Positions 1 through 8,278 of a DNA stretch of 64,000 nucleotides are shown in pieces. The stretch is taken from assembly GCA_003009755.1 (NCBI GenBank), contig PXUB01000017.1, positions 1 to 64,000 on the forward strand, given 5' to 3'. The notes beneath the pieces are model-generated. The model saw nothing but the letters and a program-made list of their open reading frames with translations, made no database searches and was not told the DNA's origin. Within the stretch, counting starts at the first letter, position 1; each line of letters opens with the position of its first letter. The translations under genes and the position numbers were made by a program. The DNA comes from Thermoplasmatales archaeon SW_10_69_26 (GTDB lineage: Archaea; Thermoplasmatota; SW-10-69-26).

Positions 1-220
1 TTGCGATCTGGTGCTTGTTCAGGCCGGGCGTGCGCGCGACGAGTTCGAGGATCGCTTGGCGGGTGTCGTCTCGGAGGAGGCACCGCTGGACCGCGTCCAG
101 CTCGTCGTGATTGGAGGGTTCATCGTCATCCGGTTGTGGGCTGCCGGGCCCCGAGCCCGGGCCACCGCCCGGCTGCGCCTGGAGGAGCGTAGGGGGCCGA
201 CGCCCACAGCCCGGACCCAT
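1..220 (-). CDS. Winged-HTH transcriptional regulator, partial (runs off the left edge; absent from the ORF track)
   Basis: Manual translation from ATG 220 gives ...DELDAVQRCLLRDDTRQAILELVARTPGLNKHQIA, paralogous to LLDHPLRRAIVDLLADRPGMNKNQIC in the gene at 2914-3483. Start is uncertain. Confidence 0.65.
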   Translation of the reverse strand, partial: MGPGCGRRPPTLLQAQPGGGPGSGPGSPQPDDDEPSNHDELDAVQRCLLRDDTRQAILELVARTPGLNKHQIA

Positions 221-440: not shown

Positions 441-638
441 TCAGTTCAGTCGCTCGATCTCACGCTGCAGGCGCTGGATCTTCGTGGTGAGCTCCTGCTC
501 GAGTTCGTAGACCTCGCGGCGCGTGTGCTCGAGTGCCTCCGCGAGCTCTTCTCGGGTGGCCTCGTCGGGATCGATCTCGACCGGTTGCTCGGTCTTGTCG
601 TCCCAGATCCAGGCAGCGCGCTTTAATGCTGAGTCCAT
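441..638 (-). CDS. Small acidic coiled-coil protein
   Basis: 65 aa, host-like codons, heptad-like C-terminus EALEHTRREVYELEQELTTKIQRLQREIERLN. Confidence 0.55.
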   Translation of the reverse strand: MDSALKRAAWIWDDKTEQPVEIDPDEATREELAEALEHTRREVYELEQELTTKIQRLQREIERLN

Positions 639-1021: not shown

Positions 1022-1246
1022 ATGGTTCACGAATCGACGACGAAGGTTGGCTCGGTGATCGTTGCGCTGGCGCTGTTGGGGATGGTTGGCTTGAGCGTTG
1101 CATCGCCAGCGCAGGCGGAGGAGCCGGCGAGTGTAGGCGAGGACAACGAGGCAGGTCCCTGCATCAAGGTGTACACGACTCCACCGGCCGTGGGAATCTC
1201 CCCCGAGAATTGCAAGCCCTCCGGGAACCTGACCGTTCCTGCATAG
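1022..1246 (+). CDS. Small secreted peptide precursor with two cysteines
   Basis: GGAGGAG RBS upstream; Sec signal ending AQA|EE; 42-aa mature part with C47 and C64. Confidence 0.75.
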   Translation: MVHESTTKVGSVIVALALLGMVGLSVASPAQAEEPASVGEDNEAGPCIKVYTTPPAVGISPENCKPSGNLTVPA

Positions 1247-1269
1247 GTCGGGTCCCCTCGGTCGTCCAT

Positions 1270-1323
1270 CGGCCCCGGGCACCGCCTCGAGCCCCTCGAA
1301 GGGCGTGGCGGTCTCCGGGGTCG
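1270..1323 (+). terminator. GC-rich intergenic stem-loop between peptide and receptor genes
   Basis: CGGCCCCGG/CCGGGGTCG, ACCGCC/GGCGGT and GCCC/GGGC nested pairings. Function (terminator or processing/stability) not established. Confidence 0.45.
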
Positions 1324-1364
1324 ACGCCCGCTCTAATCCCGTCCCCCCGCGGAGGATGGGGTCG

Positions 1365-2921
1365 ATGAGCACGCGTTCGAGCTTTCCGCTGGGTGCTCTC
1401 TGCCTTCTTCTCCTGCTTGCCCCCTCCGCTCAACCCGTGACCGGCTCCCCCCGGGAACTCGTCGTCGGCGGATCGATCGACGTGGCCGGCGAGGAGGAAC
1501 TCGCGGTCGAAGGCCCCGGAGCCGTGTACTACCACGGGCGTGAGGTGCCCGCCGCGATGACTCTAGAGGCCGACAGGATCGTCCTCGATTACGCCTGGGA
1601 GGAGGGACACCAGGCCGGACCGCCAGGCCAGGAGGGCTTCTACGAGACGAGCACCGACCACCACCGGGTATCGGAGGCTTTCACGAACGCTAGCCTCGAG
1701 GTCGGGAGCCCGGAAGATCGCCCCGAGGTCCTGGCCTATCCCGGCCATGGTACTCCACGCGTGCAGGCCTCCGGCACGGGGGACCAGTCTTTGACCTCGT
1801 TCGATGTCCCCTACCTCACTCGGATCGGGGTCCAGGAGGACGGGGAGTCGACCAACGACTCCCAGATGATCGGATTCTGGTACCAACCCCACCCGACCTG
1901 GTCTGCCGGGGTCGCAAGCGACGAAGCGGTCGTCGAGGGCGACTTCTCGCTGTTCGTGAACAACGTGACCGTGACGATCCGGGAAAACGGGGAACCCCGG
2001 TGGGAGAACTGGACGGGGTACCGGGAGGAGGACACCGGGCCCGCGGCCTCCGGCTTCGAACGGCATCTCCTCCGGGTCCACGTGACCAACGGCTCCCTCC
2101 GCCTGGCACAGAACGACGCTTTGACCGTCCTAGGTCCACAGCTGGAGGCCCAGGCGTCCGGTGTGGTCTCGGCAGCAACCGCCTCGGGGCAGGTCGAGGT
2201 CGCAGACCAGGTCTTCGCGTTCCAAGACGACGCCCTCCGCCTCGAGGGACAGGGGATTTTCCACGTCGCCGAGAGGTCTCCATCCGTCGAGGAAGGTCTT
2301 CTCTTCGAGGTGGAGGAGGGCTCCCGGTTCGACGTCCAAGGCGGTCAACCCGTCGATGCGCGGACCGGGACCTCTCAGGGGGTCTCTGGCTGGCAGCTAT
2401 GGGCTCCCGTCTCGCTCCTTGGCCTCGCTGTGGCGGGCGGCGTCACCCACCGGGCCGGCTACACCACTCAGGTTCTCGACCGCTGGCGCTCCGACCGGTA
2501 CACTAAGTGGATGACCCGCGGGCGCGAGCTGGCCAACGCGGCCGACTACCACCAGGCGGCCACCTGCTTTCGCCGGGCCACCCGGGCCCAGCCGGTCAAG
2601 GGCGTGGCCTGGTACCACCTCGCGATCGCGCTGCTCGAGAACGGCCGCCCCTCGGAGGTGCTAGAGGTCGTCGACGAGGCCCGCCGGGGTGAGGCGGTCA
2701 TCGACGAGCTGGACTTCCTGGACCTCGAGGCCCAGGCCGCCAAGCGGGCCGGCGACCACGAACGTTGCCGGGAAGCTGTGGCCCGGCTGGCAGACGGCAG
2801 CGAGGCGATGGCCACTACCCTCGTTCGGGACCTGGGGTTGAGCGAGGAGGCGCTCGGGCACGAACTTGCCACCCGCCTGTCGTGGGAGGAGGACGAGGAG
2901 GCCCTGCCCGGCTATGTATGA
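1365..2921 (+). CDS. Single-pass membrane protein: signal peptide, beta-rich extracellular domain, TM helix, cytoplasmic TPR repeats
   Basis: GGAGG at 1351-1355; N-terminal LGALCLLLLLAPSAQP; TM WQLWAPVSLLGLAVAGGVT; TPR-like WMTRGRELANAADYHQAATCFRRATRAQPVKGVAWYHLAIALLENGRPSEV. Confidence 0.8.
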   Translation: MSTRSSFPLGALCLLLLLAPSAQPVTGSPRELVVGGSIDVAGEEELAVEGPGAVYYHGREVPAAMTLEADRIVLDYAWEEGHQAGPPGQEGFYETSTDHHRVSEAFTNASLEVGSPEDRPEVLAYPGHGTPRVQASGTGDQSLTSFDVPYLTRIGVQEDGESTNDSQMIGFWYQPHPTWSAGVASDEAVVEGDFSLFVNNVTVTIRENGEPRWENWTGYREEDTGPAASGFERHLLRVHVTNGSLRLAQNDALTVLGPQLEAQASGVVSAATASGQVEVADQVFAFQDDALRLEGQGIFHVAERSPSVEEGLLFEVEEGSRFDVQGGQPVDARTGTSQGVSGWQLWAPVSLLGLAVAGGVTHRAGYTTQVLDRWRSDRYTKWMTRGRELANAADYHQAATCFRRATRAQPVKGVAWYHLAIALLENGRPSEVLEVVDEARRGEAVIDELDFLDLEAQAAKRAGDHERCREAVARLADGSEAMATTLVRDLGLSEEALGHELATRLSWEEDEEALPGYV

Positions 2922-3483
2922 TGCGCCGGGGGAGAAAAACGGCGACGAGAAGGACGAAGAGGCCGACCGGATCCCGGACTCCGTCAAGGAGAACCTCCTC
3001 GATCACCCGCTGCGTCGGGCGATCGTTGATCTGCTGGCTGACCGGCCGGGGATGAACAAGAACCAGATCTGCGAGTAGCTGGACATGGATGGCCACCACG
3101 TGGACCACCATCTCGACCAGCTCGAGAACCGGGGCCGGCTCGTCGTCACCCGGGAGAGCGCCCAGGACAAGGAGGTGTTGTGCTTCCTGGCCGAGGACGA
3201 GGAGTTGTGGGAGGACGAGAACACGCGCATCCTGTTCGGTCGGCGTCAAAAGCGGGCCGTTGGGCTCCTGTTGGCCGACAAGCCGGGCGTGTCGACACGT
3301 GAGATCGCCGAGGAGCTGATGCTCTCGCCGGATACGGTCCGCTACCACCTGCGCACGCTGATGGCCCACGACCTCGTCGAACGCTACCCAAGCGGGCAGA
3401 CGAACCTCTACGAGCCTGCCGAGGCGCTGGTGCAGTGGGCTCGCGAGGTGGGAGAAGGGTTCGACCGGCCCTGGGAGGAGTGA
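2914..3483 (+). pseudogene. Archaeal double winged-HTH regulator interrupted by an in-frame TAG at 3076-3078
   Basis: ORFs 2866-3078 and 3085-3483 are in the same frame. First HTH RRAIVDLLADRPGMNKNQICE*LDMDGHHVDHHLDQLE; second PGVSTREIAEELMLSPDTVRYHLRTL. Start overlaps the upstream stop by 8 nt. Confidence 0.75.
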
Positions 3484-4110: not shown

Positions 4111-4992
4111 GTGGACCGTCGTCTCGCGTTCGCGATCGGGCTCGCCATCGCCGCCCTGACGGTGGCCGGTTGCATCCAGGACCTCGAGCGACGACAGCTC
4201 GACACGGGCTGGCAGGCCGGGGTGTCGGTCGACGAGACCCCGGTGGCCGAGGTGGGCGGAGCCCCGGCGACGGTCGTCGTCGAGGGCGCCGTCGACGTGC
4301 CCGCGGACGTGGACATCACCCTGACAGGGTTCTCCGGCGAGCTCTCGCGCGAGAACGTCTCGATCCCGCTCGAAGCGATGCGGGTCAACGCGGACGAGGG
4401 CACGCGCAAGGTCGCCGACGCCGAAGGCGAGCTGTCCATCGAGGCCGGCGAGCAGCTGCGTGTCACATTCGTGCCCGGTGACGACGCCGACCGACGCGCC
4501 AACCCGACGCAGATCTGGAACGCCTCCCTCGAGGTCCAGTGGCGCTACAAGGCCGACGGAGAGTTCGACGCCGGCCGGCTGGAGGTCGAGCGCAACGTGA
4601 CGCCCGCCCCCGTCGGCGGCCTGGGCGTGGGGGTCGTCCAGCGCGCCGAGGGCGAGGTTCACGAGCTGGTGTTCGAGGCGATCGAGGTCGAGGACGTGCC
4701 GGCCAGCCTGAGCGTCGAGGTGCTGCAGGTCGGCGGCGGCAGCGTGGAGGCGATCGACACCGTGGACGCCGACGTCAACCGCTCGGACGGCACCGCCCGC
4801 CTGGGATTCGCCGAGCCGATCAGCGTGCCCGAGGGTTCCGGGTACCTCGTGTTCCGCCTCGACGGGCTCGCGGGGACGGCCAGCGCCGACCTGCGCGAGG
4901 CCGAGGACCCGATCCCCGCCACCGGGGCCGCCGTCGGCGTGGCCCTGCTCGCGGCCACTGCCTGGGTGGCCGGCAGCTCCCGACGGATCTGA
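4111..4992 (+). CDS. Surface lipoprotein with C-terminal sorting/anchor tail
   Basis: Lipobox LTVAGC; C-terminus IPATGAAVGVALLAATAWVAGSSRRI. Confidence 0.8.
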   Translation: MDRRLAFAIGLAIAALTVAGCIQDLERRQLDTGWQAGVSVDETPVAEVGGAPATVVVEGAVDVPADVDITLTGFSGELSRENVSIPLEAMRVNADEGTRKVADAEGELSIEAGEQLRVTFVPGDDADRRANPTQIWNASLEVQWRYKADGEFDAGRLEVERNVTPAPVGGLGVGVVQRAEGEVHELVFEAIEVEDVPASLSVEVLQVGGGSVEAIDTVDADVNRSDGTARLGFAEPISVPEGSGYLVFRLDGLAGTASADLREAEDPIPATGAAVGVALLAATAWVAGSSRRI

Positions 4993-5215: not shown

Positions 5216-6616
5216 CTAATTCTCCTCGCGCTCGGTCATCGCGCGGACGTCGAGGGCTTCGTCGACCTCGTCCTCGTCCATCAGCCCCTCCTCGACGACG
5301 ACCTGGCGCACGGTCTTGCCCTCCCGGAAGGCCTGCTTGGCGACCTTGGAGGCCTTCTCGTACCCGATGTAGGGGTTGAGCGCGGTCACGATCGCCGTCG
5401 ACTGCTCCACGAAGGACTCGGCCTGCTCCTCGTTGGCCTCGATGCCGGCGACGCACTTCTCGTCGAAGATCCGGCTGACGTTGGCCAACAGCTCGATCGA
5501 CTCGAGCACGTTGCGGGCCATCAGCGGCATCATGGCGTTGAGGTCGAGCTGACCCCACTGGTTCCCCTGCGTGACGACCTGGTGGTTGCCGGCGACCTGG
5601 GCGCCGACCTGGACGACGCTCTCCGGGATCACCGGGTTGACCTTGCCGGGCATGATCGAGGAACCGGGCTGGACGGCCGGCAGATCGATCTCGCCGAGCC
5701 CGCAGCGGGGCCCCGAGCCCAGCAGGCGGATGTCGTTGGCGATCTTCATCAGGCTGGAGGCCAGCGCGTTGAGCGCGCCGGAGACGTGCGTGATCGCGTC
5801 CTTTTGCCCCTGCGCCTCGAAGTGGTTGGCGGCTTCGTAGACGTCGGTCCCGGCGATGTCGGACAGCTCCTCGGTGACGAGCTCGCCGAAGCCCTGGGGC
5901 GCGTTGAGGCCGGTGCCGACGGCGGTGCCGCCGATGGCGACCTCGCGCAGCTCGTCGATCGCCTGCACGACCCGGTCGCGACCGTTGGCGACGCTGGCGG
6001 CGTAGCCGCCGAACTCCAGGCCCAGGCGGGTCGGCGTGGCGTCCTGGAGGTGGGTGCGAGCGACCTTGACGACGTCGTCGAACTCCTCGGCCTTGGCCTC
6101 GAGCGTCTGGTGCAGCCCGTCGAGGGCCGGGACGAGGTCCTCCTCGACGGCGAGGATCGTGGCCAGGTGCAGCGCCGTCGGGATCGTGTCGTTGCTGGAC
6201 TGGCCGTGGTTGACGTGGTCGTTCGGGTGGACCTGCTTGGACCCGACCTCGGCCCCGAGGATCTGCGTGGCTCGGTTGGCGAGGACCTCGTTCGTGTTCA
6301 TGTTCGTCGAGGTCCCGGAGCCGGTCTGGAACACGTCGACGGGGAACTCGTCGTCGTGCTCGCCCTCGGCGACCTCCTCGGCCGCCTGTGCGATCGCCTC
6401 GGCTTTCTTGGCGTCGACCGTCTCGAGCTCGCGGTTCACGCGAGCGCAGGCGAGCTTCACCATGCCCATCGCGCGGACGAACCGCGCCGGCAGCGGGTCG
6501 CCGCTGACGGGGAAGTTGTCCACGGCTCGCTGGGTCTGGGCGCCGTACAGGGCGTCCGCGGGCACGCGGACCTCGCCCATCGTGTCCTCCTCGATCCGGA
6601 CGTCGTCGTCGGTCAT
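5216..6616 (-). CDS. fumC: Class II fumarate hydratase
   Basis: GSSIMPGKVNP signature, FQTGSGTSTNMN, HPNDHVN, RTHLQDATP. Confidence 0.95.
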   Translation of the reverse strand: MTDDDVRIEEDTMGEVRVPADALYGAQTQRAVDNFPVSGDPLPARFVRAMGMVKLACARVNRELETVDAKKAEAIAQAAEEVAEGEHDDEFPVDVFQTGSGTSTNMNTNEVLANRATQILGAEVGSKQVHPNDHVNHGQSSNDTIPTALHLATILAVEEDLVPALDGLHQTLEAKAEEFDDVVKVARTHLQDATPTRLGLEFGGYAASVANGRDRVVQAIDELREVAIGGTAVGTGLNAPQGFGELVTEELSDIAGTDVYEAANHFEAQGQKDAITHVSGALNALASSLMKIANDIRLLGSGPRCGLGEIDLPAVQPGSSIMPGKVNPVIPESVVQVGAQVAGNHQVVTQGNQWGQLDLNAMMPLMARNVLESIELLANVSRIFDEKCVAGIEANEEQAESFVEQSTAIVTALNPYIGYEKASKVAKQAFREGKTVRQVVVEEGLMDEDEVDEALDVRAMTEREEN

Positions 6617-6814: not shown

Positions 6815-8278
6815 TCACCGGAACGGGTGAGGGTGCGCAAGCGGTTCCTTCACCGGGTTCCACGGGACGCCCGCAGGCGCGGGCACGGCGACCTCCCCGC
6901 GCACCTCGGCTCGGTGCTGCACCGGATCGATCTCGATTGGGCCCGCGCTGGGTTCAAGCTGGGCGGCCGCTTCGGCCATCGCTCGAAGCTCGGCCGACAG
7001 GCGTGGATCCTCCTTGACGCCCGCTTCGCCGTCTGGCACGCCGCAGTCGACCGCGTCCGGCCCGGTCGCCGGCGGCTCGGTGAGCCACGAATCGATCCGC
7101 ACCTCGTTGCCCGCCGTCCACACGTTCTCCCCGTCGCCGGGGCCGCGGTACTCGTCCCCGTAGTCAGTGAGGTTGGGACCGCTGGCGTCCCCCCACCAGT
7201 TCCACCGAGCATCTGTATCGTGTGAGAACAGGCTGCGGTCGTTCCCGTGGATGCTATTGTTGTATACCTGGGCCGCCTCCGTTCGGATCCTCGCTCCGTC
7301 TTCACTTCCGAGGACCCGGTTGTGCGTGAACTCCAGGGACTCGGGCCAGAGGTCCAAGTTCCAGAACGTGGCGTTGGCGAACACGTTCCCCCGAATCTCC
7401 AGCTCACCAGCCTCATCGAGATCCACTCCGCTATCCCCTCGACGGAACTCGTTCCCGCACAGCTCTCCCTCCACGATTTGGGGTGCATCCCGTGCACCCA
7501 GGATGTTCCAGTCCCCCTCCTCAAATACGTTGTACGCCAGCGTGACGTTGTCGGCCTCGTTCTGGGGGATCAACCCGACGTTGTCGAACACTGATCGCTC
7601 GATCGACGCATCCGTCATGTTCGAGAAGGGGATCTGACGCCAGAACCGCAAGACATCGTCGGTTCCGAACGTCGAATCCGAGATCGTCATGTTCCTCGTA
7701 TTGACGAGCCAAGCAGGGTACTCCGCCCGGTCGATGCTGACGTTCCCTAACCTCACATTCCTATTCTCAAGGAGGTCCATCCCGAATTGGAAGCCGCCGA
7801 TCGGGGCTTCGCCCTCGTTGTCCGGTTCCAGCAACACCCGCTCCAAGGTCACGTTGGAGGAGTAGAACATCTTCACCCCGATGGTCGCTCCCTGGATCCA
7901 GGCGTCCTGGATCGTCACGTTGCTGGCGTTGGAGAGCTCCACGCCAGAGGCACCGACGTTGATCGGCTCCAATACGATGACGTTCTCGACGAGGACGTGC
8001 CGGCTGGTGTCCTCGAGGCGGATGCCGGCTCCCTCTGTGCGGAGGATCACCCAGTCGCTGATTACGTAGGGGTCCTCGGCCGTCCCGGAGCCCTCGCGGA
8101 CGGCGGGATGGTCGGTGAGCTCGTCGTCGCCCTGGATGATGATGCTGCCCGTCGGCTCGGGTCGCACTTCCGTGTCGGCTTCGATGTCCGCGATGCCGAT
8201 CGCTTCGACTGCCGGCACGGCGAGTATCGCCGTCACGAGCAGTGCGATCTGCAGCCTCACCGCGACGGGTGCCTCCAT
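6815..8278 (-). CDS. Secreted right-handed parallel beta-helix (NosD-like) protein
   Basis: Signal peptide, GSGTAEDPYVISDW motif, repeated N-V-T-I/L beta-helix rungs, DARWNWWG tail motif; TATA-like TTTAAC about 25 nt upstream. Confidence 0.85.
   Translation of the reverse strand: MEAPVAVRLQIALLVTAILAVPAVEAIGIADIEADTEVRPEPTGSIIIQGDDELTDHPAVREGSGTAEDPYVISDWVILRTEGAGIRLEDTSRHVLVENVIVLEPINVGASGVELSNASNVTIQDAWIQGATIGVKMFYSSNVTLERVLLEPDNEGEAPIGGFQFGMDLLENRNVRLGNVSIDRAEYPAWLVNTRNMTISDSTFGTDDVLRFWRQIPFSNMTDASIERSVFDNVGLIPQNEADNVTLAYNVFEEGDWNILGARDAPQIVEGELCGNEFRRGDSGVDLDEAGELEIRGNVFANATFWNLDLWPESLEFTHNRVLGSEDGARIRTEAAQVYNNSIHGNDRSLFSHDTDARWNWWGDASGPNLTDYGDEYRGPGDGENVWTAGNEVRIDSWLTEPPATGPDAVDCGVPDGEAGVKEDPRLSAELRAMAEAAAQLEPSAGPIEIDPVQHRAEVRGEVAVPAPAGVPWNPVKEPLAHPHPFR

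Follow-up and report, generated by a model that had tools for sequence, protein, structure and literature searches.

What is known of signaling across the archaeal membrane comes mostly from histidine kinases, chemoreceptors, and a small number of regulators bound to the membrane, and we know of no case in this domain of life in which a secreted signal made on ribosomes has been established together with its cognate receptor. A secreted ligand that works through a kinase-free receptor is found in a bacterium, in the form of SdpC, the mature form of which has ~42 residues and one disulfide. According to PMC2910880 (citing Ellermeier 2006), the target of SdpC in Bacillus subtilis is SdpI, a protein of the membrane that sequesters SdpR, an autorepressor of the ArsR type. 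For the archaeon Sulfolobus, PMC13286277 describes ArnR and ArnR1 as membrane-anchored transcription factors controlled by phosphorylation. Here we analyze a locus of three open reading frames (ORFs), all on the same strand (1022–3483), which we call P, R, and W for a small secreted protein, a membrane receptor, and a DNA-binding regulator. The window in which they lie is the initial 64 kb of contig C17 from the halophilic Thermoplasmatales archaeon SW_10_69_26, which is represented by a 2.8-Mb metagenome-assembled genome (MAG; 95% complete, here G000).

Among described systems, SdpC–SdpI–SdpR comes closest in logic to what we propose for this locus, since it combines a secreted ligand, a kinase-free membrane receptor, and an ArsR-family regulator sequestered at the membrane; the likeness is not one of shared ancestry. 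We see about an even chance that P, R, and W make up a self-contained, kinase-free transmembrane signaling cassette of halophilic Thermoplasmatota, with W under the control of R and P as the extracellular partner of R. The argument starts from what can be observed directly, namely the anatomy of the genes, their synteny, the fusions among their relatives, a mosaic pattern of conservation, and the absence of kinase domains. An initial annotation of the locus, made from its sequence, had not recognized the architecture as a described archaeal system, and our literature searches likewise found no description of the cassette.

The secreted protein P

P (1022–1246, plus strand) encodes a protein of 74 residues and ends with a TAG stop codon. 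Its hydrophobic leader (1022–1117) ends in AQA just ahead of EE, which gives a predicted mature part of 42 residues (1118–1243) with a loop between C47 and C64 (1160–1213), and a GGAGGAG sequence at 1007–1013 lies 8 nt ahead of the ATG. The ORF, the leader, and the GGAGGAG sequence thus bear out each feature that the initial annotation had assigned to this gene: a 74-aa prepeptide, a mature part of ~42 aa, the C47–C64 loop, and a strong ribosome-binding site. Orthologues with 62–79% identity are present in other metagenomes, and in an alignment of the 14-member P family C47 and C64 are invariant while P55 and V57 are nearly so.

The family falls into two size classes, with 5 of the 14 members being short (74–88 aa) and the other 9 having 129–182 aa. 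A C-terminal FN3-like domain, which is missing from the window's P, could be aligned in eight of the nine long forms, and because of these long members "secreted Cys-loop protein" is a safer name than "peptide". The FN3-like part has no Pfam match at E ≤ 0.01, and its profile finds Protein Data Bank (PDB) chains at E values of 1.2e-4 to 0.36; these are weak matches, among them the chitinase A1 domain 1k85 (E 0.24), which we take to be FnIII-like. Among the 150 P-profile matches listed, 14 cover the Cys-loop part, all of them from G000, G001, G003, and G190, and the remaining ones cover only the C-terminal FN3-like part, which occurs as repeats in large surface proteins of many genomes.

P carries an N-L-T sequon at residues 70–72, and an N-x-S/T sequon a few residues past the second cysteine is kept in 5/5 close short-P orthologues while the flanking residues vary. 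The R ectodomain has two invariant motifs, LFVNNVT and WxNWTG, each with an N-x-T sequon. Judging from these retained sequons in both proteins, P is probably N-glycosylated. A predicted complex of the ectodomain with mature P (residues 33–74) had a score of 0.00 and a mark of 0.32, with controls not run, and speaks neither for nor against binding.

Two other secreted proteins of G000 contain Cys-loop repeats (C43:53544–54326, plus strand; C9:35894–36364, minus strand) of the form C-x-x-V-Y-x-E-x-x-A-G-P-x-T-V-x-x-x-C. These loops recall that of P, with E values of only 1.6 and 3.8 against the P hidden Markov model (HMM), so that kinship is unproven.

The receptor R

R (1356–2921, plus strand) is a single-pass sensor. 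Its start is more likely ATG 1365 than ATG 1356 or GTG 1305, because ATG 1365 lies 9 nt past the GGAGG at 1351–1355. A signal-like N-terminus (to ~1445) is followed by a 315-aa ectodomain (residues 31–345; 1446–2390), one transmembrane (TM) helix (residues 349–371; 2400–2468), a helical C-terminal domain of tetratricopeptide repeats (TPRs; ~2481–2879), and an acidic tail (2883–2918) that ends in WEEDEEALPGYV (PGYV-COOH).

TPR models are the only Pfam models found in R, with TPR_14 above its cutoff (24.3 bits; cutoff 23.5) and TPR_16 (30.1; cutoff 32.7) and TPR_2 (26.7; cutoff 27) slightly below theirs. In the AlphaFold 2 (AF2) model of R (pLDDT 82.9), the helical part matches TPR domains with a Foldseek probability of 1.0 and superposes on CHIP, SGT, RPAP3, and designed TPRs with TM-scores (target) of 0.52–0.81, and on Hop-like TPRs. 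Sequence models and helical-repeat fold therefore agree in placing the cytoplasmic part of R among the TPR domains, and the single pass, the large ectodomain, and the cytoplasmic TPRs of the initial annotation all hold up. TPR structures of the CHIP/SGT/Hop type have been solved with C-terminal peptides bound.

The ectodomain is modeled as an all-β fold with very long strands (pLDDT 89, pTM 0.85). Foldseek comparison of this model with the PDB gave TM-scores of at most 0.13 in the best 50 matches listed, comparison with BFVD gave 0 matches at E ≤ 0.001, and scores against the ESM Atlas were at most 0.84, with none credible; the sequence profile reached a best E value of 0.11 against the PDB. 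As modeled, the ectodomain matches no solved fold in the PDB and no viral fold in BFVD.

Among the best 150 metagenomic representatives of the receptor family, a C-terminus of the form [GSAT][YF][VATI]-COOH, typically L-[DP]-G-Y-[VA], is present in 61 of the 90 that are of the TPR type, in 6 of 42 others, and in 0 of 18 that are fused to a tandem winged helix-turn-helix (wHTH). The motif is kept in three loci (L006, L024, and L025; L numbers denote receptor loci) where the end of R does not overlap the start of W. Two receptors of G001, L008 (677 aa) and L017 (685 aa), have the motif internally (...SYV and ...TFV), followed by ~90–150 aa of additional helical sequence, which gives the impression that another TPR-like module had been appended to the usual C-terminus.

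The regulator W

W (2914–3483, plus strand) encodes a tandem ArsR-type wHTH protein with wHTH1 at ~2998–3177, wHTH2 at ~3226–3423, and a conserved tail, GFDRPWEE, at 3457–3480. Its ATG at 2914 lies within the last codons of R, so that start and stop overlap (ATGTATGA). In domain searches, in which an in-frame TAG was read as X, W matched HTH_20 (52.9 bits; cutoff 27) and HTH_5 (51.6; cutoff 22) in two stretches each, as well as NF033788 (56.8; cutoff 55), and is by these matches an ArsR/SmtB-type winged HTH. It also matches PF24266, HTH_HVO_0163_N, which describes haloarchaeal HVO_0163-like wHTH domains (49.9 bits; cutoff 31), as do the fused relatives L041 (49.3), L046 (37.4), and L056 (39.0). 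Neither R nor W contains a kinase domain (Pfam, E ≤ 0.1), nor is there a HisKA/HATPase_c or receiver domain, in keeping with the kinase-free architecture that the initial annotation had described.

The free W proteins end in G-F-[DE]-R-P-W-x-x, with F183, R185, and W187 invariant in 10 orthologues, and the C-termini of the fused forms lack this motif. At least seven other G000 proteins have predicted TM segments followed by a W-type tandem wHTH, with unrelated outside domains (C15:135–1208, C23:36390–37577, C19:41579–42952, C25:81620–83179, C30:13385–14149, C25:79343–80386, and C19:76956–79454), and on this evidence the membrane-tethered tandem wHTH seems to be a general device in this organism.

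The initial annotation was right in describing a tandem wHTH gene that overlaps the stop codon of R; it did not report that the frame is broken. As assembled, an in-frame TAG at codon 55 (3076–3078), in the recognition-helix region of wHTH1, splits W into a 54-aa stub and a 132-aa ORF that starts at ATG 3085 (3085–3483, plus strand). Besides the C-terminal tail, the latter encodes wHTH2 in full and, of wHTH1, the wing; it is the gene found in the public record (cluster member P0183, 132 aa). Intact orthologues of 189 aa exist in other metagenomes (P0019, 96% identity; P0180, 94%) and carry glutamate at this position, which points to a one-base change from GAG to TAG, although the TAG may instead be an assembly error. 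Another metagenome orthologue, P0027 (165 aa), is 96% identical in wHTH2 and tail and has unrelated sequence for its N-terminal half; to judge by this sequence, wHTH1 has been lost a second time, and independently, within the group of orthologues.

We considered that TAG might be a sense codon, through pyrrolysine decoding or suppression, and rejected this idea. The aragorn predictions for the genome contain no tRNA with a CUA anticodon, PylS and PylD stay well under their cutoffs (38.1 bits against 178 and 19.8 against 150), and TAG terminates 316 of 1169 confident ORFs as well as P itself, so that it must be taken for an ordinary stop codon in this genome. The window's copy of the cassette may thus be crippled, or it may rely on a second, divergent W-like gene at 2–220.

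Conserved gene order and gene fusions

The initial annotation had named receptor homologues that usually lack the upstream peptide or the downstream wHTH as the finding that would speak against a joint function. For counting, duplicate loci (L010, L029, L034, L036–L039, L052–L055, L057, L062, and L063) were dropped, matches to the TPR part only (L011, L015, L027, and L028) were left out, and the degraded copy L023 was set aside. A co-oriented P lies directly upstream of R in 11 of the 16 family loci that include the N-terminus of the ectodomain and upstream DNA (L002, L003, L004, L007, L008, L012, L013, L017, L019, L020, and L021). Of the P sequences at these loci, seven had served as seeds of the P HMM, the eighth seed being the divergently oriented P of L026; all eight had been found earlier by tblastn or by a filter for hydrophobic leaders and signal peptides, and L007, L013, L017, and L020 are independent finds of the HMM. 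In L022, P is recognizable by its motif only (E = 1).

On the other side of R, a tandem-wHTH W follows on the same strand in 10 of the 14 loci that include the receptor C-terminus and downstream DNA; it adjoins in another orientation in two (L013 and L017) and is missing within ~1.4 kb in the last two (L014 and L016). The trio is also complete, with a 74-aa P, in G190, a genome from outside the class. The idea thus came through the comparison that had been set for it. Beyond R and W, seven compared neighborhoods share no further gene family, whether protease, exporter, importer, modification genes, or targets.

A more direct tie between R and W comes from sister families, in which the ectodomain and the TM helix are fused in one ORF to a tandem wHTH (L041, L046, L056, L059, L060, and L051); Pfam confirmed the tandem wHTH in 3/3 fusions scanned. 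L026, which belongs to the same family as R, likewise continues from ectodomain and TM helix into a wHTH, with the contig ending inside the first one. By HMM, the 150 best metagenomic representatives mentioned above divide into 90 of the TPR type, 18 fused to a tandem wHTH, and 42 with neither. Following the Rosetta stone argument, the fusions of ectodomain, TM helix, and wHTH suggest a single pathway for R and W.

The fused receptors may have a P-like partner as well, as six of seven fused loci have a divergent ORF with signal peptide and Cys-loop at most 206 nt from the receptor 5' end, compared with a chance expectation of 0.059 such ORFs per random site in G000, a control genome that differs from those of the fused loci, which are themselves interrelated. 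That the genes of this family adjoin by chance is ruled out by a gene order that recurs from locus to locus, by the fusions, and by the conserved tails.

Mosaic conservation

Close orthologues from different strains are conserved very unevenly along the cassette. Identity is 84–97% in the P leader and 24–66% in mature P, 39–51% in the R ectodomain and 61–95% in the R TPR domain, and 94–96% in W. The set formed by P0006, P0014, and P0180 illustrates the pattern, with 97% identity for the leader, 39% for mature P, 44% for the ectodomain, 85% for the TM helix, 95% for the TPR domain, and 94% for W. In the DNA, the variable parts are contiguous (~1118–2390), with the conserved parts on either side.

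Distribution

The R ectodomain family is narrow. A single protein query found it in 5 of the 6 genomes of the order, and a full-length profile found the R family in 17 of the 21 genomes of the class, where the weaker matches concern the TPR part only. In a sample of the phylum, 19 of 401 genomes have the family, 16 of them within the class, and of 1.84 billion representative proteins, 185 match the ectodomain family at E ≤ 0.001 and 82 at E ≤ 1e-30. The cassettes occur in several copies, the number of matches per genome being 20 in G003, 5 in G001, and 3 in G000.

A search of genome contigs returned two loci, one from a Thermoplasmatales MAG and a weak match in Myxococcota (30% over 99 aa, E 1e-5), and scans of metagenome contigs for wider context gave zero matches. 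Part of the stretch is contained in six runs from three studies that are labeled as halite metagenomes, a label that fits the acidic proteins. The out-of-class trio (L069, G190:C33; E 5e-54) lies in another class of the phylum, from most of which the family is missing, and horizontal transfer of the cassette among halophiles is possible. One R copy, in G003 (L023/L029, G003:C123), is spread over several frames with one TGA and appears to be a decaying paralogue.

Intergenic regions and neighboring genes

Upstream of P, an intergenic region of lower GC content (639–1021; 0.57–0.58, compared with ~0.67 in the flanks) is a putative promoter/operator. It contains the inverted repeats 811–825/914–928 and 746–755/816–825 and two of the three genome-wide copies of ACGTGGGGAAC, features from which we infer a regulatory role. 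A shared operator motif did not emerge, as any given 7-mer is present in at most 4 of the 13 regions that precede P, and neither a bacterial-type promoter or intrinsic-terminator-like site nor any Rfam family or tRNA was found in the locus.

Between P and R, an RNA hairpin is predicted at 1269–1324 (plus strand; 121 nt folded, −66 kcal/mol). The stem-loop that the initial annotation had placed after P is thus present as a prediction, yet it rises only modestly above chance for DNA so rich in GC (z = −2.0; 8 of 200 shuffles as stable), and it was seen at this locus only. At the other loci, the spacing between P and R runs from −24 to +14 nt, so that the two genes touch or overlap.

The second W-like gene (2–220, minus strand) points away from P and is cut by the end of the contig, so that only its N-terminal part is present; it is 48% identical to wHTH1 of W over 31 aa (E 7e-07). 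Between it and P lies an ORF for a 65-aa acidic, coiled-coil-like protein (441–638, minus strand), which is coding-like in composition (GC content at third and second codon positions, GC3 and GC2, of 0.80 and 0.36), and for which tblastn found a homologue neither in the fetched loci nor elsewhere in the genome. Downstream of the cassette, a 293-aa ORF (4111–4992, plus strand) has a lipobox-like N-terminus (LTVAGC) and a hydrophobic C-terminal segment; it matches no Pfam family and is not conserved beside other cassettes. Farther on are a 466-aa ORF (5216–6616, minus strand), by eye presumably a class II fumarase, and a secreted right-handed β-helix/NosD-like protein (6815–8278, minus strand; Pfam Beta_helix 45.4 bits, NosD 33.9 bits).

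Proposed mechanism and alternatives

In the mechanism that we propose, P would be exported by the Sec route, close its C47–C64 disulfide, and serve as a ligand or co-sensor partner of the β-rich ectodomain of R. R would relay the signal through its single TM helix to the cytoplasmic TPR domain, which would hold the tandem-wHTH protein W at the membrane or release it. Docking of W on the TPR domain might involve the tail of W (FDRPWEE-COOH) and that of R (PGYV-COOH), one or both of which could lie in the TPR groove, given the resemblance of the fold to the peptide-bound TPRs of CHIP, SGT, and Hop type. Free W would act on DNA, most likely in the promoter region of the cassette itself. The sister lineages would use a shorter relay, in which ectodomain and TM helix are joined directly to the tandem wHTH.

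Several observations weigh against this proposal. Within the family, L005, L006b, and L009 (the paralogue on contig C22 of G000 itself) have R and W without P, and this subfamily implies that P is not obligatory. The loci come from a few related MAGs and from paralogues within them, so that the counts are not independent. The members of P with 129–182 aa, eight of them with the FN3-like domain, are proteins and not pheromone-like peptides. W is interrupted by the TAG in the window, and this codon together with P0027 suggests that some strains can do without this W orthologue or are losing it. Pressure from viruses or antagonists would likewise be expected to make exposed parts diverge faster, and the correlation between P and ectodomain trees is weak (mirror-tree over eight cassettes, r = 0.27, Mantel p = 0.11; partial r = 0.38, p = 0.049). 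Moreover, P0006, P0014, and P0180 are taken to be adjacent only on the ground that they share a 40,288-bp longest contig. Finally, the binding of P to the ectodomain, the docking of W on the TPR domain, and the DNA targets are all things that we infer. The ligand–receptor–regulator module of the initial annotation therefore stands as far as synteny, fusions, and mosaic divergence carry it, while its peptide is doubtful in view of the nine long P members, and its regulator is, as assembled, broken in this copy.

Much of this evidence could also be read as a sensor–regulator pair for a single environmental cue, for example an ion, envelope stress, or a surface polymer, with P as a constitutive, ToxS-like accessory subunit that stabilizes or tunes the ectodomain. 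The tight operonic arrangement of P with R at the other loci would fit such a subunit well, as would the FN3-like domain of many P members, typical of structural surface proteins, and the R–W pairs that do without P; the seven or more TM-tethered tandem-wHTH proteins with unrelated ectodomains in G000 even suggest a sensor architecture of general use and not one devoted to peptides. We nevertheless consider this explanation unlikely. A near-invariant leader beside a diverging mature part is typical of secreted signals or toxins, and a contrast of 97% to 39% identity would be unusual for a structural subunit. In addition, the strong Shine–Dalgarno sequence of P and the hairpin behind it would permit an excess of P over R, and in the fused-type loci P is a divergent transcription unit of its own.

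The hypervariable exposed block next to conserved cytoplasmic parts, and the many diversified paralogous cassettes per genome, are also what one would expect of antagonism or recognition, with P as a toxin or identity tag, R as immunity protein or receptor with a signaling role, and W as autorepressor, or of an exposed block that varies because viruses use it as a receptor. The SdpCIR logic set out in PMC2910880 provides a precedent, W has a weak match to the SdpR model, and the out-of-class occurrence suggests horizontal transfer. This account is quite improbable in our judgment, for R, which crosses the membrane once and has a large ectodomain, is no relative of the polytopic SdpI, the score of W is below the SdpR cutoff, PADLOC matches are generic wHTH domains only, and none of the seven neighborhoods has a conserved exporter, protease, or modification gene. 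By our own reading, mature P is also acidic, whereas membrane-active peptides are usually cationic. That the three genes are mere neighbors without joint function, or that the locus is a decaying remnant here, strikes us as very improbable. The nonsense codon in W, the degraded R copy in G003, and the replaced N-terminal half of P0027 could all be cited in its favor, but chance adjacency is excluded for the family by synteny, fusions, and tails, P and R are intact with coding-like GC3 (0.74 and 0.83), near-identical strains have an intact W, and the TAG may be an error of assembly.

A more specific form of the signaling cassette deserves mention, in which it would be the first protein- or peptide-based cell-to-cell signaling system of Archaea. 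Mature P, as a glycosylated disulfide-loop protein, and the ectodomain would together form the hypervariable block that defines pherotypes by setting the specificity of signal and receptor between strains, the almost invariant leader, TPR domain, and W would provide a common output, and W would be captured by its tail on the membrane TPR. We regard this form as rather unlikely; if it were true, the relay by tail capture would have no described counterpart in any of the domains of life.

As a compact, three-gene, kinase-free signaling candidate, the cassette offers a natural experiment in its fused and split relatives, and its natural allele diversity could be used for specificity tests. The analysis also adds an ectodomain fold that is modeled with confidence and has no match in BFVD or the PDB, the expansion in halophilic Thermoplasmatota of a family of tandem-wHTH regulators tethered to the membrane, and a possible new use of TPRs as a membrane dock for transcription factors.

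Comparison with known signaling systems

For all its likeness in logic, the Sdp system is built from different proteins. SdpI is polytopic (3–12 TM segments) and has neither a large ectodomain nor TPRs, whereas R is single-pass with a β-rich ectodomain of 315 aa and TPRs. With its signal segment, one TM helix, and Pfam matches to TPR families only, R does not belong to the SdpI family, and W scores 40.6 bits against the SdpR family NF033789 (cutoff 100), a generic ArsR-like similarity that leaves it outside that family. P has no homology to SdpC, and the hosts belong to different domains of life.

The fused relatives resemble ToxR and CadC in being single-pass proteins that join an extracytoplasmic sensor to a DNA-binding domain, and P resembles ToxS in being a small, co-transcribed, exported partner, as ToxS is for ToxR. 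The domain order is opposite, however, with the sensor N-terminal and outside and the DNA-binding domain C-terminal, and the latter is of the tandem ArsR type and not of the OmpR type, so that the fused relatives are not ToxR-like one-component regulators; in the window, moreover, the regulator is not part of R, where a TPR domain stands instead. Another likeness is to pairs of anti-sigma and extracytoplasmic function (ECF) sigma factors such as FecR–FecI and RsgI–SigI, in which a single-pass membrane protein has its sensor outside and keeps a transcription factor bound by a domain in the cytoplasm, and which are adjacent, co-transcribed, and present in many copies per genome. Here the factor held would be a wHTH protein and the holder a TPR domain instead of an anti-sigma domain, and no genes for regulated proteolysis are conserved nearby; to our knowledge, Archaea have no sigma factors.

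Among quorum-sensing systems, the agr and com pherotype loci of Firmicutes similarly place a hypervariable block of mature signal and sensor between a conserved leader and conserved cytoplasmic parts. Their receptors are histidine kinases, whereas Pfam finds neither a kinase nor a response regulator in the cassette, which is accordingly not a two-component system of the Agr/Com kind. The RRNPP/Rgg systems (Rap, NprR, PlcR, and PrgX), on which see PMC7425212, share with the cassette a Sec-exported propeptide, a TPR protein, an HTH regulator, and many paralogous pairs. Their receptors, however, stay in solution in the cytoplasm, where they bind the re-imported peptide and in most cases carry the HTH on the same chain, whereas the TPR domain of R is tethered behind an ectodomain and the HTH is on W. 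With no Opp-type importer linked to it in the seven neighborhoods, the cassette does not fall within the RRNPP family. ArnR, as described in the source cited above, has its HTH at the N-terminus and its TM segments at the C-terminus, with neither a large ectodomain nor a secreted partner, and so differs from the R–W cassette. The proposed relay, control of a transcription factor at the membrane without a kinase, is thus of a known kind, built from parts that have not been described before.

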